A stretch of DNA of 64,000 nucleotides from the IMG/VR virus record IMGVR_UViG_3300021142_000016. One strand, 5' to 3'. The stretch is from an uncultured virus (IMG/VR IMGVR_UViG_3300021142_000016) (lineage: Duplodnaviria; Heunggongvirae; Uroviricota; Caudoviricetes). The position numbers and the translations under genes were made by a program. Of the stretch, positions 6,749 through 59,875 are shown piece after piece (position 1 is the stretch's first letter; every line of letters starts with the position of its first letter). The notes beneath the pieces are model-generated. The model saw nothing but the letters and a program-made list of their open reading frames with translations, ran no database searches and was not told the DNA's origin.

Positions 6749-7041
6749 TTACCCAGCTCCTCCAAAATTGCTTCAGCAGTACGTGATTCAATACGGTCAA
6801 CAATTTCTCCCTGCCTCATGGTAAAAATTTGAGGAATACTTTTGATTCCATAATATTCTACAGTAGACGAGTCAATCTTGTCAACATCTACCAAATAATA
6901 GTTAGTTTCAGGATCAATTACTGAAACCTTGCCATAATGTGGCTTTAATTGTTTACAGGGATTGCACCAATCTGCTGTAAAATAAACTACACATTCATCT
7001 TCAGCAATAAATTCATTTACGTCATTTGTGATCTTAAGCAA
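6745..7041 (-). CDS. thioredoxin
   Basis: FTADWCNPCK active site; cis-Pro motif SIP. Confidence 0.9.
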   Translation of the reverse strand: MLKITNDVNEFIAEDECVVYFTADWCNPCKQLKPHYGKVSVIDPETNYYLVDVDKIDSSTVEYYGIKSIPQIFTMRQGEIVDRIESRTAEAILEELGK

Positions 7042-7264
7042 TTAATTCCTCCGCAGTTATGGTTTTACCCACATATCGGCGTTTTGTGATGTAGTCCTTG
7101 ACATGTTCGGGGCCCTTTTGCCGTCCTCCTAAAATGATAACCCATCTAGGCTCAAATTGGGAATCCACGCATGTTTGACACATATAAAGGGTGGTGCCCT
7201 TTAAAATTTCTGACTGAAATGGCCCCAGCTCGTTCTTGTTTTTACCGCAAGAATAGCAAATCAT
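7034..7264 (-). CDS. zinc-finger hypothetical protein
   Basis: CYSC...CQTC. Confidence 0.65.
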   Translation of the reverse strand: MICYSCGKNKNELGPFQSEILKGTTLYMCQTCVDSQFEPRWVIILGGRQKGPEHVKDYITKRRYVGKTITAEELIA

Positions 7265-7485
7265 TCATTTTCCCCTTCATTGACATATCCAATACCGATC
7301 TCATCCACCTCTATAAACTCATCATTAGGAATTTCTATTAAATAACTAATTCCCATATCAAAGTATTCAATAAGAGATGCATAAGCCCCATGAGACTTTA
7401 CTGTTCCATATATGCCATCTTCTGGCAAATATACATAGGTAACAGAAAGCTCAACGCTGTCCTCTTCGTTTTCTTGCTTGCTCAT
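7261..7485 (-). CDS. hypothetical acidic protein
   Basis: ORF coupled to its neighbours. Confidence 0.6.
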   Translation of the reverse strand: MSKQENEEDSVELSVTYVYLPEDGIYGTVKSHGAYASLIEYFDMGISYLIEIPNDEFIEVDEIGIGYVNEGENE

Positions 7486-7729
7486 CAGTATACTTCATCC
7501 CTTCTATTTCGCATGGTGTACCGTAAGACATAATTAATTGACGAACAGTTAGTAAATAATCCATTAAGGCCATTCTATCTGTTTCGTTATACTCCATGAC
7601 ATTACTCTCATATACAGTTAATGCAAGATAGTTTGGTCTTGCTCTAACGTCCATGACTAGGCCACGTACTGGACATTTAATATCCCGCACCTTTTTAGCC
7701 ATATCAACTGTATATCTAATTTTTGGCAT
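7451..7729 (-). CDS. hypothetical protein
   Basis: 92-aa ORF overlapping its neighbours. Confidence 0.6.
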   Translation of the reverse strand: MPKIRYTVDMAKKVRDIKCPVRGLVMDVRARPNYLALTVYESNVMEYNETDRMALMDYLLTVRQLIMSYGTPCEIEGMKYTDEQARKRRGQR

Positions 7730-8039
7730 GAAGTTTCTTTAACCTTTTCCATGTCTCTGGATCTTTGTGCTCATTGTGTTGTTTATCTGGTCTGCCAAGA
7801 TCCATAAATACCCCGCCCCAAACACCTTTTTCTTTATTCTTAACACCCTCGGAATGACATTTCTTAATTACTGGACAATGTAGACATACTTGATCTACTT
7901 GTTTGGCAAGCTCTTTGTCAGACTCATAGTCATCATAAAACCAATTAATTGACATATTGTTACAAGCAGCAAAATGATACCATTTAATATCTAGTGGATC
8001 AATGCCAAGATTATTGATTATATCTGGCATACTTGTCAC
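7716..8039 (-). CDS. whiB: WhiB-family Fe-S transcription factor
   Basis: W...AAC-x-CLHCPV..C four-Cys pattern plus GVWGG turn. Confidence 0.92.
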   Translation of the reverse strand: MTSMPDIINNLGIDPLDIKWYHFAACNNMSINWFYDDYESDKELAKQVDQVCLHCPVIKKCHSEGVKNKEKGVWGGVFMDLGRPDKQHNEHKDPETWKRLKKLHAKN

Positions 8040-8244
8040 TAATTTCCCAAGTACCGTTATCCTTTAGCTTATAGCGTAAAATATAACCCCACTTGTTGTC
8101 CCTCAACATGCCGTTTTTTTGCATGTAACCATTATCATTTCGGGTCCACTTAACAATTGTGTAACCATCCCAAAAAAACCCAAACTTTTTGTTTTTTTCA
8201 ACAAATGAATGCGCTTGATTGTAATCTAAAACAAAATTAGCCAT
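8011..8244 (-). CDS. hypothetical protein
   Basis: 77-aa ORF on the coding strand. Confidence 0.6.
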   Translation of the reverse strand: MANFVLDYNQAHSFVEKNKKFGFFWDGYTIVKWTRNDNGYMQKNGMLRDNKWGYILRYKLKDNGTWEISDKYARYNQ

Positions 8245-8548
8245 TATTTTGTGCCAACTTCTTTCCTAGTAGTTGTCTCCAGTTAACAAAGAAATACTTT
8301 TCTCCGTCTTCTTCAATTTCTGTTGCATGATTTGGTGAGTAAATTACAGTGTCACCTAAATCTAACGGTATGTCGTAGTGATTACCTGATGGGTCGTGGT
8401 CTCCATCGCCTTTGGCAACAACAATCCCCCGCTTTGTAACTTCATCTTGAATGGTTGCTGCTAAAACAATTCCAGATTTAGTAGTCTTTTCTCCATCCTC
8501 AATTTCTTTAATAATAATCATTGGGCCCAATGGGATAATATTTATCAT
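8237..8548 (-). CDS. groES: GroES/Cpn10 co-chaperonin
   Basis: IIPLG..., EKTTKSGIVL mobile loop, GIVVAKGDG, LGDTVIY. Confidence 0.9.
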   Translation of the reverse strand: MINIIPLGPMIIIKEIEDGEKTTKSGIVLAATIQDEVTKRGIVVAKGDGDHDPSGNHYDIPLDLGDTVIYSPNHATEIEEDGEKYFFVNWRQLLGKKLAQNNG

Positions 8549-9267
8549 AGGAAAATTAATCCTCTCATTCCTAGTAGTTTATTCATAATTCCTTGCGGTA
8601 CAGATTGTGGATACTCATTTTGATTTAACATTAAATTAATTGTATTTTGAGTATTAGTAATTGCTTGTTGCAATTGAGTTCCTGTTAATCCCGAATCAAT
8701 CGGTATTGGATTCTTAGTAATATTATAAGGTACAGGATCGCTACTTCCTAGCGTTAGGCATTCAACATTAAGTGAATTTGCAATATCAGTGCAATCAACA
8801 GTCGCCGTTTCTACTGGCGTAGTTGTTTCAGTTTGTGTAATAATTGGTTGAGATTCAGTTACAATTGGCTGTGGTGTAAAAACTGGTTGTGGAGGTGCAA
8901 CAAAAGTCCTGACTAATGCAATAGGAGCAGCAGGTGCTGCAACAGTAATTGATGCTACAGGCGCACCAGCATTAGTTGAGGGTGAAGCTGTTTGTGTTAC
9001 AGTAAATGTATTTGTATTTTGAGAGTAATTAACAGTTTGATTTTGTTGAGTAAGTAATCCACCAGAAATTCCAGAAGATTGCAAAACTAACTTATTACCA
9101 TCTGGAGCAATACCGCCCCAAGAACCTCCAGCACCGCATACTGATGCTGTGCAAGAGATAATATTAGTTACATTTCCGTTTGCATCTACTGATGCATATG
9201 TGTCTGCGTATGCGACTGATGTTGATGATGCCAAAATAAGAGTTGTAATTAACAACGCTTTTTTCAT
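8545..9267 (-). CDS. secreted Pro/Thr-rich protein
   Basis: Signal peptide MKKALLITTLILASSTSVAYA; YASVDANGNVTNIISC; P/T/A linker. Confidence 0.7.
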   Translation of the reverse strand: MKKALLITTLILASSTSVAYADTYASVDANGNVTNIISCTASVCGAGGSWGGIAPDGNKLVLQSSGISGGLLTQQNQTVNYSQNTNTFTVTQTASPSTNAGAPVASITVAAPAAPIALVRTFVAPPQPVFTPQPIVTESQPIITQTETTTPVETATVDCTDIANSLNVECLTLGSSDPVPYNITKNPIPIDSGLTGTQLQQAITNTQNTINLMLNQNEYPQSVPQGIMNKLLGMRGLIFL

Positions 9268-14764: not shown

Positions 14765-15262
14765 TTATCCTACGTTATAAATTGTTAGATTAGCACTTGG
14801 TGATGCTGGTCTTGTTGGATTTGTTCCTGCTGCTGTAGCCAATAATGACATTCCCGCTGCACCTGACCACCAATGAAATTGAATATAATCTCCTGCATTA
14901 ACAATAATTGGTGATTCAATATTTGCCAATACCTGTGAACCTTGAGCACTTGTAGTTGTAAATGTAAAAGAAGATGATGGTACCTGTACACCATTTTTAG
15001 AATACCAAGTTGTAATATTATAATTAGATGCTCCACCAGTAAAGTCAAATTGACCTAAAAAGTTAAGGTTGTATGTTCCTGGAACTTGAAAGGTAATCTT
15101 TGTAGCATCTGTACCGCTAATTGACATACCTTTTGAAAGATTTGTTGTATCCCAAGTTATAACGTTATCTGTTGTTGTACCGCCAGATGACATACTTGTT
15201 GAACGTGCAAAGTTTCCGTAATAAAGAATTTGAGCGGGAACTGTTGAAACTTTAATGCTCAT
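14765..15262 (-). CDS. C1q/TNF-like jelly-roll protein, possible head fibre/decoration
   Basis: YGNF, ITF..PGTYNL.F..QF, W..KNG..VP.S, AGDYI. Confidence 0.55.
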   Translation of the reverse strand: MSIKVSTVPAQILYYGNFARSTSMSSGGTTTDNVITWDTTNLSKGMSISGTDATKITFQVPGTYNLNFLGQFDFTGGASNYNITTWYSKNGVQVPSSSFTFTTTSAQGSQVLANIESPIIVNAGDYIQFHWWSGAAGMSLLATAAGTNPTRPASPSANLTIYNVG

Positions 15263-15263
15263 A

Positions 15264-15551
15264 TTAAACCTCTGCTGCTAATACTGCGACGTTTGGAGTT
15301 CCAGATGCTGCAATAGCATAAAGTTGATCGGAAGCAAGAAGATCTACTGTGTATGTTTGACCTGCTAAAAGAGCAAAACCATAAGATGATGTAGTAACTA
15401 AAGAAGATCCTAGATATACAGTAATTACTGGGTCTAAATTTTGAACAGAAAGTGAAACTCTGCTTTCATATACAGTTTCATTTGCTGATGGAATACTTAC
15501 TAATGTTGCTGTAGAAGCATTAAGAGCTACTACTTGGTGTGTTATTGCCAT
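15264..15551 (-). CDS. small beta-rich putative virion protein
   Basis: VQNL....VYLG...VT...YGF.L..G........LYAIA pattern. Confidence 0.55.
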   Translation of the reverse strand: MAITHQVVALNASTATLVSIPSANETVYESRVSLSVQNLDPVITVYLGSSLVTTSSYGFALLAGQTYTVDLLASDQLYAIAASGTPNVAVLAAEV

Positions 15552-16050
15552 TTGTTACCTCCGTGTTTTTTGTATCTTTACCAATTATATCATTTATCTT
15601 GCGAGATTTCATTTTCTTTGGATTAGGTATTACCTCTGCTGCGGGTAAAGTTCCCGCCTTTCTAAACCTAAGAGATTCCCAGAGAGCATGAGGTAGGGTA
15701 TGCACCCCGTAGTGTGTTCTGTGATGATTTGTACACAAAGTTTCAAGATTGCCTGGACTTTCCAGCCATTGTTGAAATTCATCATCATCTTTAAAATTTA
15801 AACCAAAATAAGCTTCAATTTTTTCTTGATCTGCATTTGGTAGTTGTGAAAATTCTACATGCGTATGATGTAATTCTATTTGACCGCCACATAAATCATC
15901 ATTGATGTTGCACTTCCAAAGTCCAGCTTCCTTGATCTTCTTTTTAGCAGCCACAAAATATTTATAATTTGGGTCATGCTCTCGTGGATCATGCTCGGGT
16001 ATATGTGCTAAAATATGAAATTCCATATTTACATCATGTGCATCTGTCAT
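15520..16050 (-). CDS. HNH-like His/Cys-rich protein
   Basis: C...C....ELHH...NLETLC..HH....GVH. Confidence 0.55.
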   Translation of the reverse strand: MTDAHDVNMEFHILAHIPEHDPREHDPNYKYFVAAKKKIKEAGLWKCNINDDLCGGQIELHHTHVEFSQLPNADQEKIEAYFGLNFKDDDEFQQWLESPGNLETLCTNHHRTHYGVHTLPHALWESLRFRKAGTLPAAEVIPNPKKMKSRKINDIIGKDTKNTEVTNGNNTPSSSS

Positions 16051-16073
16051 AATAGTTAATTATACATTATTTG

Positions 16074-16144
16074 AGCGAATAGCGGGAATCAAACCCGCGC
16101 ATTAACCTTGGCAAGGTTACGCACTATCACTATGCAATATTCGC
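16074..16144 (-). tRNA. tRNA-Gly (GCC)
   Basis: GCGAATA/TATTCGC acceptor, TAACC-TTGCCAA-GGTTA, U73. Confidence 0.88.
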
Positions 16145-16147
16145 AGG

Positions 16148-16272
16148 GGCTATATACGGATTCCAGCACATTGAATGGCTGCCCTAAGAAGTCTCCCACT
16201 CACAGAACTCTGGTCACGGGTTACTTGGTTATTCGTAACTATATCCATACCTAAGGTGTGCCGTATATAGCC
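16148..16272 (-). ncRNA. putative structured ncRNA between tRNA-Leu and tRNA-Gly
   Basis: Perfect 12-bp terminal stem GGCTATATACGG/CCGTATATAGCC with nested helices; not a cloverleaf. Confidence 0.6.
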
Positions 16273-16275
16273 TTG

Positions 16276-16349
16276 TGCTTCATGTAAGACTTGAACTTAC
16301 AACATCATGATCCTAAGTCATGTGCCTCTACCAATTGGGCCAATGAAGC
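16276..16349 (-). tRNA. tRNA-Leu (UAG), short variable loop
   Basis: GCTTCAT/ATGAAGC acceptor, CATGA-CTTAGGA-TCATG, A73. Confidence 0.88.
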
Positions 16350-16354
16350 TTCTG

Positions 16355-16426
16355 CTTCCCGTCATGGATTCGGACCACGATTCTCGGCTCCAAAGGCCGA
16401 TGTCCTGCCAATTGGACGAACGGGAA
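16355..16426 (-). tRNA. tRNA-Gln (UUG)
   Basis: TTCCCGT/ACGGGAA acceptor, TCGGC-CTTTGGA-GCCGA, G73. Confidence 0.9.
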
Positions 16427-16430
16427 ATAG

Positions 16431-16504
16431 TGTGGGATGTCAGACTTGAACTGACGATTACCGAATTATGAGTTCGGGGCTTTGACCAACTAAGCTAATC
16501 CCAC
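16431..16504 (-). tRNA. tRNA with CAU anticodon (elongator Met or Ile2)
   Basis: GTGGGAT/ATCCCAC acceptor, CCGAA-CTCATAA-TTCGG; lacks initiator features. Confidence 0.88.
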
Positions 16505-16511
16505 TTTGGGT

Positions 16512-16748
16512 TTAGTTAGCAGATCCTATTAATTTGCTTTGGATTATTTTTGCTCTTTCATCAATTACTTCGTAAGCAAATGGCTTAATTGCCTCTTCAT
16601 TTTTAGCATAATGATGACCACAGAACATCAACTCTCCAGTAACACCTTTAACTAAAACAAGTGCTTGAGCTGAGCAACTATCACAACGATCAGCAATTTT
16701 AAGAACATATTCTTCTTTAATTACTTCTTCTGTTTTCTCTGCCATCAT
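16512..16748 (-). CDS. small actinobacterial-type zinc-finger protein
   Basis: ADRCDSCSAQA...GELMFCGHH; ATG 7 nt after TATAAT. Confidence 0.7.
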   Translation of the reverse strand: MMAEKTEEVIKEEYVLKIADRCDSCSAQALVLVKGVTGELMFCGHHYAKNEEAIKPFAYEVIDERAKIIQSKLIGSAN

Positions 16749-16792
16749 GTTCATAATTATACTCTCTTCACTAGTTAGTTAATAATTGATCG

Positions 16793-16865
16793 CTGGGGTG
16801 GTAGGACTCGGACCTACGACATTCCGATTAACAGTCGGACGCTCTGCCAGCTGAGCTACACCCCA
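16793..16865 (-). tRNA. tRNA-Asn (GUU)
   Basis: TGGGGTG/CACCCCA acceptor, TCCGA-CTGTTAA-TCGGA, G73. Confidence 0.9.
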
Positions 16866-16870
16866 ATGTT

Positions 16871-17140
16871 TTATCTATACTTTTTCATATCCAAAATATC
16901 TTGAGGTGTTTCAATCATTCTGCGTTGTGCCTCAAATTTTCCCAACTCTACGATTTCCTGAGCAACTGTTGCCATCATATCGTAAAGTCCTGCTGCATAC
17001 CGCTTATGCTTTACTGGTGCTGCTTCAATTTCATCTTTCATGTTAACTACTGATTGTGTAAAATACTCGCACAATTGTGTCAAACTTATATAAATATCTT
17101 TATCATCTTCAATGGTCTTAATTGTGCCATCTGCTAACAT
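16871..17140 (-). CDS. hypothetical protein
   Basis: 89-aa ORF with a GGA Shine-Dalgarno. Confidence 0.6.
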   Translation of the reverse strand: MLADGTIKTIEDDKDIYISLTQLCEYFTQSVVNMKDEIEAAPVKHKRYAAGLYDMMATVAQEIVELGKFEAQRRMIETPQDILDMKKYR

Positions 17141-17173
17141 TTTTATCCTTTGTTTGTTGTTGATGTTATTCTA

Positions 17174-19021
17174 CTATAGAATTCTCATGCTGTCAACACG
17201 TAATTCATCTTCATCGTCATCAAGTCCCATAAATTCCCGCAAACTTTTTGGCATTTCTTTTTTGTCAGGCATTCTAATTGTATTATTTTTATTTAATCTA
17301 GCATCTGATTGTTTTCTTAGCTCTTCTAATTCTGATGCAAATACGCCAGAATAAGTATAGATCTCTACTTCTTTATCAGCGTCTGGGGGAGTTAACGATA
17401 TAGCATTATATACTGAACCACAAACTGCGTCAGACAAGTCCTTAGAACCTTTTCTGGGGTGGTCTACACGATCTTTTACTATACGCAATTGAAGCAATTC
17501 ATCAATAAGCAATTGAATTTTTGGACCATGTAATCTTTCTTCAGTTAAAGTAAGAGACATATCTTCGTAATGTTTTTTTGCTACTGAAAGAATTTCTGTT
17601 TTAATCCCATGAACGCCAAGCTGTTGCATCATGTCATGAGAATTCCATCTGTCAAATGTTACTAACTTAAGGTTAAATCCTTTTTCTCTAACACTTGTAA
17701 TATAATCTTTAACTTCTGTAAAATCAACAGATTTTGAAGCTGTAGGTGTCCAATATCTTACTGCATCTACAACAACTCTAGGGGCTGCTTCTTTATACTG
17801 TTCACCAATTTTCATTGTCACCCAGCCCTCAACGTGAGCTAAAGCTACTGCACAATGGTCATGCTTTTGAGCAAGGTCAACGTGCATAAAATATGTTTTT
17901 TCTGGATCTGGTTTAAAATCATCGTCAAACCTGCCATATGAATCTACATTTAATTTAGGATTACTAAATGCTTTTTCAATTACCAATCTGCTTTTAAAGA
18001 ACGCATCAGTAGCATCTGGTGGCATGCAGGCAAAACGAGAAAGAGCATCTGTTGGATCTGTATAAAAGTCAATAGTAAAATCTTCAATTTTACGTGTTGG
18101 ATTAATTTCCCAAGTAGGTCTTTTTAAAGCATACATTCGTGGGACTTTGTATGAAATAATATGGTCTTCTTCCCATTCAATTTCAAATTCATTGCCCTCA
18201 GTATTATCTGGAAGATCTGGGTCTACTTTAAACCTATGATGCCTAAGAACCACTTCTTTTTCGGCTACCGCTTCATTATATTTTTGCTGGATATAGTCGT
18301 TTTTAAAACGTGGGAATGAAAGCAAAATAACTTTACCAAAATCTGGGAAACGTGAGTTTACAGATGCACGATACATCTTATAAATTGATGATGCAGTTTT
18401 TGCTTGTTCATGCCCAGTAGTTGACTCAAGTTCAAAACCTGAAATCTCATCAAGAATAATTACAAGAACGTTATATCCTTCCCAAGCTTCTCTTTCTGAG
18501 TGACCTGAGTGAACAGTAACTGATTTATCAAACTCAACCATGTTGGCCTTAGCAACATATTTCCCTTGAAACCATGGGGATTTTTCAATACGCTGATTAA
18601 ATCCTTTAAAGAATACTCGGTTAGCCTGAACGGCGTTAATAGCAATGTTAATAATATCAATAGCATCGCCTGGTGGCTTACCAAAATAAACTGCTGGGTC
18701 TGCTAGACAAAGCAGCAAATAAACCATATAGGCACAAGCAATTGTAGATGTATAGTCTTTTCCAGAACCCTTACCCAACTGCAAAATAACTTCGTTACAT
18801 GTTTGCTTAAATATTTTGGTGCCTTCATCTTCACCATAAATACGTATTAATGTATCTTTTTTATAAATTTGAGTCATCGCACGAATCATGGTGTATTGAT
18901 AATCAGAAAGTGGTGGTAAGCCTAAATAAGCTTTATCTGTAACAAATTGCTCAAGTGATACTGGAGTTTCTGAAAATTCATCTCCAGTCAAAGCATCTAA
19001 AAATACGTTAAAATCATTCAT
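17174..19021 (-). CDS. terL: terminase large subunit
   Basis: Walker A GKGSGKD, Walker B IILDE, LLSFP coupling motif, nuclease HVDLA, TFDRW, DHP..GSKDLSDA. Confidence 0.93.
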   Translation of the reverse strand: MNDFNVFLDALTGDEFSETPVSLEQFVTDKAYLGLPPLSDYQYTMIRAMTQIYKKDTLIRIYGEDEGTKIFKQTCNEVILQLGKGSGKDYTSTIACAYMVYLLLCLADPAVYFGKPPGDAIDIINIAINAVQANRVFFKGFNQRIEKSPWFQGKYVAKANMVEFDKSVTVHSGHSEREAWEGYNVLVIILDEISGFELESTTGHEQAKTASSIYKMYRASVNSRFPDFGKVILLSFPRFKNDYIQQKYNEAVAEKEVVLRHHRFKVDPDLPDNTEGNEFEIEWEEDHIISYKVPRMYALKRPTWEINPTRKIEDFTIDFYTDPTDALSRFACMPPDATDAFFKSRLVIEKAFSNPKLNVDSYGRFDDDFKPDPEKTYFMHVDLAQKHDHCAVALAHVEGWVTMKIGEQYKEAAPRVVVDAVRYWTPTASKSVDFTEVKDYITSVREKGFNLKLVTFDRWNSHDMMQQLGVHGIKTEILSVAKKHYEDMSLTLTEERLHGPKIQLLIDELLQLRIVKDRVDHPRKGSKDLSDAVCGSVYNAISLTPPDADKEVEIYTYSGVFASELEELRKQSDARLNKNNTIRMPDKKEMPKSLREFMGLDDDEDELRVDSMRIL

Positions 19022-58683: not shown

Positions 58684-58715
58684 AGTTAAGGGAGATATTG
58701 CTATCTCCCTTAACT
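58684..58715 (-). terminator. intrinsic terminator after the major capsid gene
   Basis: 14-bp AGTTAAGGGAGATA/TATCTCCCTTAACT hairpin followed by ATTTT. Confidence 0.85.
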
Positions 58716-58732: not shown

Positions 58733-59875
58733 TTAGTATGTGTAAGTTCCTGAGCCACCGAAGGTACCAGCACCGTTTGTAACGGAACCAAAAGCACCTG
58801 TAGCAACTGAACCTGCAACCTTAACGTTCTTCACAATAACGTGAGCGTCATAGTTTTCCATTTGTGCGCCAACACGGATGAAGAGTGTATATTCAATTGT
58901 ATCCTTCTTTGGTTGGAACAAACGATAAACAGTTACATCGCGCTTGATACCAATGATGAAGTTCTGAGGGAAAGTCAAGTGGATGTCACCGTGCAAACCA
59001 GTTGCACCGTTGTAATCTCCTGCCTTTGTCTCGTCCATCAATGGAACGTTGATTACTGGGATACCGAAAGCGAAAGGAGTTGTAGTTCCTGGACCGCCAT
59101 CGTTAGCAGTAACATCACCACGGATAACGCCAGAAGCGATATCAAATGGGTTGACCGAACCAGCGTTAGCTGTTAGGTTGTATAGGTAATCTTGAACTAG
59201 GTTTGATCCTGAGAAGAAACGAAGTTGATTACGGCGTTGCTTGTACTTACGAGGAAGTGTCTTGATAGCAAGGTTGAATACAGCCTTGTCAAGTCCTACA
59301 CCTTGTGCGTCAACAACGTGAGCGTTAGCAAGTGCCAATGCACGGAATCCTGCGAATGCAGAAAGCAAACCAGAGCCAGTACCGAGACCATTGATTAGTA
59401 CATCCTCAATGTCGTTACCAGCTTGTGTTGCCATAAGACGTGCGATGTGGTCTTCTAGATCTGGACCCTCAATATTGTCTTCAAGAGACTCTGAAGAAAG
59501 TTCCCAGTCTAGGCGAAGCTTGCGAGTTGTCAAAGAAATCTTTGAGAATGTAGCAGCAGCGTTAGAGAAGTTTCCAACGTTTGCGCCTGAAGTATCATAT
59601 CCTGTGTAATCACGAGGATTTTCTTCTGAAGCGACTGTCATAATTCTCTGACCGACTGATACACGGTCAATTTCTGTTGTGTTTGAGCGCATACGAATAG
59701 TTCTTGCAGCCTTAGCAAGAATTGTAGCGTCCCACATGTAATCTAGGAAGCGATTAGCCTGATCTGGATAGAGGAGACCGTCACCGCTGAGGGTTGATGT
59801 ATCTGTTGATGCATTAACGCCAGCTGAACCAAGATTTGTTGTATCAATTACTTTTTGTAGAAGTTCATTACTCAT
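58733..59875 (-). CDS. major capsid protein (HK97 fold)
   Basis: GLL.PDQANRF, LS.ESLEDNIEG, INGL; strong Shine-Dalgarno and terminator; follows the protease. Confidence 0.92.
   Translation of the reverse strand: MSNELLQKVIDTTNLGSAGVNASTDTSTLSGDGLLYPDQANRFLDYMWDATILAKAARTIRMRSNTTEIDRVSVGQRIMTVASEENPRDYTGYDTSGANVGNFSNAAATFSKISLTTRKLRLDWELSSESLEDNIEGPDLEDHIARLMATQAGNDIEDVLINGLGTGSGLLSAFAGFRALALANAHVVDAQGVGLDKAVFNLAIKTLPRKYKQRRNQLRFFSGSNLVQDYLYNLTANAGSVNPFDIASGVIRGDVTANDGGPGTTTPFAFGIPVINVPLMDETKAGDYNGATGLHGDIHLTFPQNFIIGIKRDVTVYRLFQPKKDTIEYTLFIRVGAQMENYDAHVIVKNVKVAGSVATGAFGSVTNGAGTFGGSGTYTY

Follow-up and report, generated by a model that had tools for sequence, protein, structure and literature searches.

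A predicted noncoding RNA with tRNA-like ends in the tRNA clusters of uncultured freshwater phages

The spacer between tRNA-Leu and tRNA-Gly

The window analyzed here, a stretch of 64,000 nucleotides (64 kb) from an uncultured virus of the Caudoviricetes, contains six tRNA genes, all placed on the minus strand by ARAGORN and Rfam. Five of them (Asn, Met, Gln, Leu[UAG], and Gly[GCC], in that order) lie at 16073-16865, and the protein genes around this cluster, including that of the large terminase (17174-19021), are also on the minus strand. The whole of the spacer between tRNA-Leu(UAG) (16275-16349) and tRNA-Gly(GCC) (16073-16144), both called by ARAGORN and Rfam, is taken up by a 125-nt element at 16148-16272, with gaps of 3 nt and 2 to 3 nt to its neighbors; it is recognized by a covariance model (R1) and has homologues. 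An earlier note on this DNA had described the element as filling the gap between these two tRNAs, and the measured gaps agree with it. Because the tRNAs and the neighboring genes are all on the minus strand, the element is read from 16272 down to 16148, so that the layout in the note keeps its position and takes a minus-strand direction, with the transcript order Leu, element, Gly. All features described below are on that strand, and their sequences are given 5' to 3' along it.

The ends of the element form a perfect inverted repeat (16148-16159 and 16261-16272), which is the 12-bp closing stem that had been noticed earlier. The window holds 15 inverted repeats of at least 12 nt with arms no more than 150 nt apart, and two of them are perfect: that of the element and that of the capsid-gene terminator described below. 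The single-sequence fold of the minus strand has a free energy of -41.0 kcal/mol (z score of -2.07), which was equaled by 8 of 200 shuffled sequences. Since this is only modestly better than the shuffles, the case for the element is comparative rather than thermodynamic.

ARAGORN and cmscan with the tRNA model found no tRNA in 16148-16272, even at E values up to 10; ARAGORN found no tmRNA in the window, and no Rfam clan matched the element. The cmscan check that had been proposed for the element, run against Rfam 15 (including ribozymes, Y RNA, 6S, and SRP), returned no family at gathering scores or at E values up to 10. Neither ARAGORN nor Rfam found a T, D, or anticodon arm, in agreement with the earlier reading that the element has no anticodon and no T arm, and no T-loop or elbow mimic could be demonstrated in it. 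A scan for intrinsic terminators across 15000-18000 found no site; the closing helix encloses 101 nt, and in the window a tRNA follows it after 3 nt, which is not the form of an intrinsic terminator.

Two further observations concern the cluster itself. A gene for a small, Cys-rich DUF7455 protein lies within it at 16512-16754 (minus strand), with a TATAAT box a few nucleotides 5' of its ATG, as would resemble a leaderless mRNA; the gene is conserved in related loci, and a gap of about 285 nt after tRNA-Asn in most of those loci is its place. Rfam also reported sub-threshold Plastid-ycf2 matches on the plus strand of 16073-16144 and 16275-16349 (34.7 and 29.9 bits, with a cut-off of 65.7), which we rejected as a false-positive pattern on the antisense strand of two tRNA genes.

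Homologues, closing helix, and ends

The homology search suggested for this element recovered at least 51 distinct homologues in viral contigs, 77 to 138 nt long and 42 to 90% identical to the window copy. The set of 51 was assembled from blastn at terminase loci and two DNA-pattern scans, with chance matches removed. By blastn, the element is matched in 25 of 80 terminase-related viral loci, and the family is larger than the 51 members sampled. The window element scores 93.9 bits against model R1 (E value of 5e-25). Carriers are uncultured freshwater phages with an actinophage-like terminase, and a blastn search of the element against 50,697 phage records gave no match.

A strict 24-nt pattern for the core was found at two places among 185,579 bacterial and archaeal species genomes. 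One is on a phage-like contig in a metagenome-assembled genome (MAG), where the element lies between tRNA-Gln and tRNA-Gly. The other (L316:401-424, in a Selenomonadales MAG) was rejected as a host homologue and assigned to chance, being a promoter of the sigma-70 type in which the pattern makes up the spacer and the -10 box upstream of a gene; this place shows that the loop sequence can be read as a promoter. With only these two places, one phage-like and one due to chance, the family appears to be restricted to phages.

Some members are shortened. Forms of 77 to 79 nt (L008:7270-7346, L224:383-461, and at least 9 further loci) keep the 12-bp closing helix, P1, and the invariant core and lack the P3 hairpin and the 3' domain, which suggests either that the 3' domain is dispensable or that the short copies have decayed. 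In one other copy (L237:323-434) the 3' helix arm is missing or replaced, and in another (L300:286-397) it lies beyond the end of the DNA examined. At L013, a 1.7-kb insertion (6859-8568) separates tRNA-Leu(UAA) from the element and carries open reading frames of 317 and 240 amino acids, the first of which resembles, by eye, an NAD-dependent sugar epimerase/dehydratase; a new -10 box stands just 5' of the element there.

P1 is common to all 51 homologues. In the window it pairs the 5' arm GGCUAUAUACGG (16261-16272), the presumed mature 5' end, with its perfect complement CCGUAUAUAGCC (16148-16159). Compensatory changes were found at 11 of the 12 pairs in a set of 28 sequences. In an Infernal alignment of 56 rows, which includes five partial or spurious rows and was fitted to P1, every one of the 12 pairs had changes on both sides, with 99.1% of cells paired; a score as high was not obtained in any of 500 shuffles, and controls with slid partners were 28 to 48% paired. 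Across the first 12 positions in the 51 sequences, there were 590 Watson-Crick pairs, 18 G-U, 1 A-C, and 3 others. The ratio of G-U to A-C indicates that P1 pairs as RNA, on the strand that carries the tRNAs.

The sequence of P1 drifts freely, while its length is held: 12 bp in 38 members, 13 in 7, 14 in 4, 11 in 1, and bulged in 1. The acceptor stem (7 bp) and T stem (5 bp) of a tRNA add up to the same 12 bp. The tail is also tRNA-like. In the window it reads CCU (16145-16147; a discriminator-like C, a second C, and a spacer U before tRNA-Gly); the nucleotide after P1 is C in 45 of 51 members, and the first two are CC in 37. In at least 97 of 126 flanking tRNA genes, the discriminator is likewise followed directly by a C, after which the sequences diverge. 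In the flanks of loci L001 to L317, the phage tRNA genes have no encoded CCA; in most of them one C follows the discriminator, and the next two nucleotides are commonly AA. The 12-bp helix (38/51) and the 3' tail starting with CC (37/51) together present the geometry of an RNase P substrate; the 11 members with helices of 13 to 14 bp speak against a strict fit to a 12-bp stack.

Placement follows the same pattern, with an acceptor-type helix and a discriminator-like C standing in an operon slot close to their neighbors. In 36 of the 51 homologues, the helix starts 2 nt (33 members) or 1 nt (3 members) past the end that ARAGORN gives for an upstream tRNA, which is not always the same one (Met, 11; Gln, 10; Leu-UAA, 7; Ile, 5; Leu-UAG, 2; Asp, 1). 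A further tRNA follows 3 to 11 nt downstream in 29 members. The other 15 have no upstream tRNA, and all 15 have instead a TATAAT, TATACT, TACAAT, or TAAAAT hexamer ending 6 to 8 nt before the first G of P1, as read by eye from the flanks without a shuffle control. This spacing puts the predicted transcription start at the same 5' end that RNase P would otherwise make. Of the 22 members without a following tRNA, 16 have at least five T residues within the next 10 nt, compared with 3 of the 29 members that have one. Taken together, helix, placement, tail, promoter, and T tract argue for a gene whose RNA has defined ends, and to judge from these loci the element can occupy a tRNA slot or stand alone.

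These features could also belong to a spacer of the tRNA operon that acts purely in cis, guiding processing or insulating or ending the operon before being degraded. The U-rich tract where the element is last in its cluster is in keeping with such a role. We nevertheless consider a cis spacer unlikely: the simple terminator scan found nothing at the element, 15 members have a -10 box of their own and no upstream tRNA, the invariant 8-nt AUAGUUAC and several other blocks are kept across members that are 42 to 60% identical, and the core hairpin recurs behind capsid genes, away from tRNAs.

An acceptor-like helix with a C-C tail in a tRNA slot might suggest instead a degenerate or exotic aminoacylated molecule resembling tRNA or tmRNA. 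Against this stand the missing T, D, and anticodon arms and the null results with ARAGORN and the Rfam tRNA model. The helix is continuous over 12 bp and covaries freely, so positions 8 to 12 are not D-arm linkers. We regard this explanation as highly improbable.

A small protein gene was rejected because the 32-codon frame of the window, read from the AUG/GUG that precedes the core, is cut short after 2 codons in 31 of the 51 members. The claim of a structured RNA other than tRNA is thus sustained, in that the closing helix covaries, the element is noncoding, and no curated family contains it. On comparative grounds, we conclude that the element is a conserved noncoding RNA gene on the tRNA strand, with tRNA-like ends.

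Inner structure and the core hairpin behind major-head genes

Within P1, AUAGUUAC and most of a CUUAGG block are invariant or nearly so, as are RNAUA, RAGAGU, GAGA, CAG, GUGC, and GGAA. In our best inner model, a helix H2 (CCUUA/UAGGG) would enclose two hairpins, P2 and P3, and would be followed by the 3' domain and then by UGGAAU. Clear covariation is confined to P1 and P3 in these alignments. RNAalifold on MAFFT alignments returned P1 only, or unstable inner pairs; a pairwise covariation scan yielded mostly G-U noise; and averaged pair probabilities gave support for P1 and a UAUA/UAUA apical stem only.

The 5' strand of H2, CCUUA (16252-16256), begins the invariant CUUAGG block and may pair with UAGGG (16182-16186). 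H2 is paired in 78% of cells and has one pair with changes on both sides, a compensatory event (CCUUG/CAGGG) in the three related sequences L005, L009, and L013; the L004 group has a perfect CCUUA/UAAGG. Within the element family, support for H2 is weak. The earlier note had listed CCTTAGG/CTTAGGG as a pairing; these strings are a direct repeat, although pairing is possible between CCUUA and the UAGGG within the second copy.

P2, the core hairpin region (16220-16251; GG..UAUAGUUAC..CC), was modeled from per-sequence folds as GG...UAU[AGUUACR]AUA...CC, with UAU/AUA around a GUUAC loop in most members. Its predicted apical loop contains the invariant UAUAGUUAC (16235-16243, from alignment A1), which is single copy in the 64-kb window; this 9-mer is also present in the hairpins behind capsid genes described below. 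The 8-nt AUAGUUAC is invariant in the same alignment, apart from one member, L015, in which the first U is G. Because the apical pairs never vary, they are uninformative about P2. The distance from CUUAGG to UAUAG is not fixed but ranges from 4 to 8 nt. In the lineage of the window, the P2 region includes an alternative GUUAC/GUAAC pairing; this hairpin, proposed earlier, is present and is found in only 10 of the 51 members.

P3 (16195-16220), which carries the conserved AGAGU block (16207-16211), is identified by folds and covariation. Folding predicts a hairpin here in almost all members, and in 19 of 51 it is a 7-bp stem closing an RUAAGA hexaloop; these stems take 14 distinct forms, with compensatory changes at pairs 3 to 5, so that P3 appears well supported. 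The 3' domain differs between subfamilies, and no one fold fitted it. A tentative and unproven P4 (16166-16182; GCAG..CAUUC..GUGC) has its base, GCA/UGC, paired in 40 to 43 of 49 sequences, with inconsistent inner pairs. The conserved junction strand UGGAAU (16160-16165; alignments A1 and A2), which adjoins the 3' arm of P1, showed no consistent partner in our search for one.

Other candidate helices include CAC/GUG, GCAGCG/CGGUGC, and GGAUG/CAUUC. The last is paired in 34 to 42 of 48 to 49 sequences and competes with P2; it has a compensatory UGAUGG/CCAUUA in the L004 group and mismatches in others. A crossing ATGG/CCAT pairing, read previously as a possible pseudoknot, is not upheld in the relatives and stands as a possible but unproven pairing, as does CACA/TGTG. 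The CAGA/TCTG hairpin cannot form, because its loop would be 2 nt.

The core is not confined to tRNA clusters. The pattern CCTTAGG-N(2-6)-TTATAGTTAC was found at no fewer than 120 loci in viral contigs (L318 to L437; for example, L330:1497-1596 and L364:1426-1524). In 74 of 80 loci examined with 1.5-kb flanks, it starts 0 to 15 nt after the stop codon of a gene of about 360 codons. Four such genes were compared with PHROG; three match "major head protein" and one "virion structural protein," and the head protein of these capsid-type loci corresponds to PHROG 3922/1623. The motif at the 3' end of the capsid gene forms a hairpin, UAGGN/NCCUA, with GUUAUAGUUAC in the loop and CCUUAGG at the base. 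In 41 of 54 unique sequences, the fifth pair is G-C in 29, A-U in 7, C-G in 1, and G-U in 2, and the third pair includes 11 G-U cells and the first 5 U-G cells. A strongly covarying terminator hairpin follows, and then an invariant TTAC(TA) box, which stands where the -10 element of the next gene is expected. The capsid hairpin is equivalent to H2 plus P2 of the element, with its terminator hairpin in the place of P3. Model R1 picks up two of the capsid-type loci (E values of 1e-4 and 1e-3), and Rfam identified no family in eight of them at E values up to 1. Because the core recurs as a covarying hairpin behind head genes, it looks like a portable RNA module.

The window has its own major-head gene (58733-59875), whose product is 44% identical to one capsid-type head protein. 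This gene has a plain terminator at its 3' end, without the core motif: a perfect 14-bp hairpin with a 4-nt loop (58684-58715), then a U run, and then a promoter-like TGATATAAT. Conversely, in a capsid-type record of 87% completeness, the 9-mer occurs at the capsid gene and nowhere else. The occurrence of the motif as a single copy, either at the capsid gene or in the tRNA cluster, suggests that each genome keeps one copy, at one of these two sites; this appears to be so in the genomes compared.

The resemblance of the loop to the -10 box TATAGT, often preceded by G or TG, would be in keeping with a DNA-level role: the core could be an internal promoter, an operator, or another single-copy cis site, with P1 as a DNA inverted repeat. 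Its single-copy occurrence per genome is consistent with such a site, as are the sigma-70-type promoter formed by the 24-nt pattern at L316 and the related TTACTA box behind the capsid-family terminator, where the promoter of the next gene is expected. The pairing statistics point the other way, since an excess of G-U over A-C is expected of sense-strand RNA pairing and not of a DNA palindrome. This excess is 18 to 1 in P1, and the first five pairs of the capsid hairpin have 18 G-U or U-G cells and 1 A-C. In addition, the spacing between CUUAGG and UAUAG varies, no -35 box is present, and the upstream promoters lie where they would drive transcription of the entire element. We consider a DNA-level site quite unlikely, and less likely still than a cis spacer. 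A multicopy promoter motif was discarded because the core occurs once in 64 kb, and the variable spacing argues against a promoter for a single-subunit RNA polymerase. CsrA sites, put-type antiterminators, and packaging RNA are other candidate resemblances that were considered.

A compact fold of several helices with invariant unpaired nucleotides, located at transcript junctions (between tRNAs, or at an mRNA 3' end in the capsid family), could also indicate a self-cleaving ribozyme or another catalytic RNA that processes the transcript. However, no Rfam ribozyme matched the element (E values up to 10) or the capsid loci (E values up to 1), the sequences suggest no site of cleavage, and excision is already accounted for by the tRNA-like ends. 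We give a ribozyme very little weight, somewhat less than a DNA site.

Processing, known relatives in kind, and implications

On balance, we lean toward the hypothesis that the element is a small RNA that is cut out by tRNA-processing enzymes and acts in trans through its conserved hairpin. It would be transcribed together with the tRNAs. A helix of acceptor-plus-T length, a C-C tail, and a tRNA slot suggest that RNase P would make the 5' end and that RNase Z or exonucleases would make the 3' end, possibly with CCA addition; alternatively, a promoter would start the RNA at the nucleotide where RNase P would cut. P1 may then provide a stable scaffold on which the conserved hairpin (CUUAGG base, UAUAGUUAC loop) and the AGAGU hairpin are displayed, and the released RNA would bind a conserved partner in trans. 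Capsid-type phages would produce the conserved hairpin as the 3' end of an mRNA. We infer the processing enzymes, the stability, the action in trans, and the existence of a partner from these features of the sequences.

Two candidates for the partner or target of the hairpin, a UAACUAU site and the DUF7455 protein, were examined, and neither could be retained. The loop is antisense to a UAACUAU at the capsid terminator of the window, but this 7-mer occurs 15 times against 13 expected, and it is absent from the capsid terminator in three of three relatives. The DUF7455 protein is encoded in two of two records of the tRNA-cluster type and in none of three of the capsid type, which are incomplete, and it finds no support as a general partner.

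Excerpts of one study report that RNase P measures the stack of T-stem-loop and acceptor stem and cleaves non-tRNA RNAs that present one (PMC4919913). The element would be a substrate of this kind, with cleavage inferred here from the helix and tail and described in those excerpts for substrates with an acceptor/T-stem-like stack (PMC4919913). It matches no Rfam family of such substrates.

The closest known kind is that of the stable RNAs of the T4 and T5 tRNA clusters. The species 1 and 2 RNAs of T4 (rnaC, 139 nt, and rnaD, 119 nt, annotated as "small, stable RNA") are, like the element, about 120 to 140 nt long and situated in a tRNA cluster, on the tRNA strand, a few nucleotides from the next gene; the element, too, is thus a non-tRNA RNA gene within a phage tRNA cluster and on its strand. 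Stable RNAs are also encoded in the tRNA region of T5/BF23. The suggestion of a new RNA class therefore went too far, because small stable RNAs in phage tRNA clusters have long been known. Model R1 found no match in T4 69500-73500 at E values up to 10, and the fold of rnaC has a true T arm of the tRNA type, which the element lacks. These two differences indicate that the element, although of the T4 kind, is not a homologue of rnaC or rnaD. The T4 RNAs are confined to T4-like phages, whereas the element family is found in uncultured freshwater phages. To our knowledge, the function of rnaC and rnaD is still unexplained. Our search of the literature on stable RNAs of phage tRNA clusters, noncoding RNAs of freshwater actinophages, and the core string, supplements aside, found nothing on this RNA or its core.

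Two other known systems are similar in position. The Mu-gpT-DE RNA motif is a structured, conserved RNA that lies 3' of a gene for a major head protein and resembles the capsid-type hairpin in its place, although the Rfam search of eight capsid-type loci at E values up to 1 identified no family. GOLLD and ROOL RNAs are several hundred nucleotides long, and Rfam matched neither of them in the 125-nt element. Both are phage or prophage noncoding RNAs that often lie beside tRNA genes and are possibly cotranscribed with them, according to excerpts of another study (PMC5737381).

What seems distinctive about the element, as far as comparison of sequences can tell, is the depth of its comparative support together with a core hairpin that also forms part of a widespread, unannotated motif behind capsid genes. 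It adds a comparatively rich case to the stable RNAs of tRNA clusters, with 51 sequences, a helix of tRNA length, interchangeable upstream tRNAs and promoters, and a core shared with capsid loci. The capsid-type set is much larger than the tRNA-cluster set and suggests that many genomes of freshwater phages carry an RNA motif that is still unannotated. We speculate, with considerable reservation, that a single hairpin (CUUAGG base, UAUAGUUAC loop, and a second hairpin after it) might be a portable regulatory module that is delivered in two ways, each by different freshwater phages: as the 3' untranslated region of the head mRNA, ending in a terminator, or as a free-standing RNA with tRNA-like ends that is excised and stabilized by the tRNA-processing enzymes of the host. 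If this is true, the tRNA maturation pathway would be a general production line by which phages make trans-acting regulatory or decoy RNAs, and the element family would offer a comparative handle on the role of the T4- and T5-type stable RNAs.
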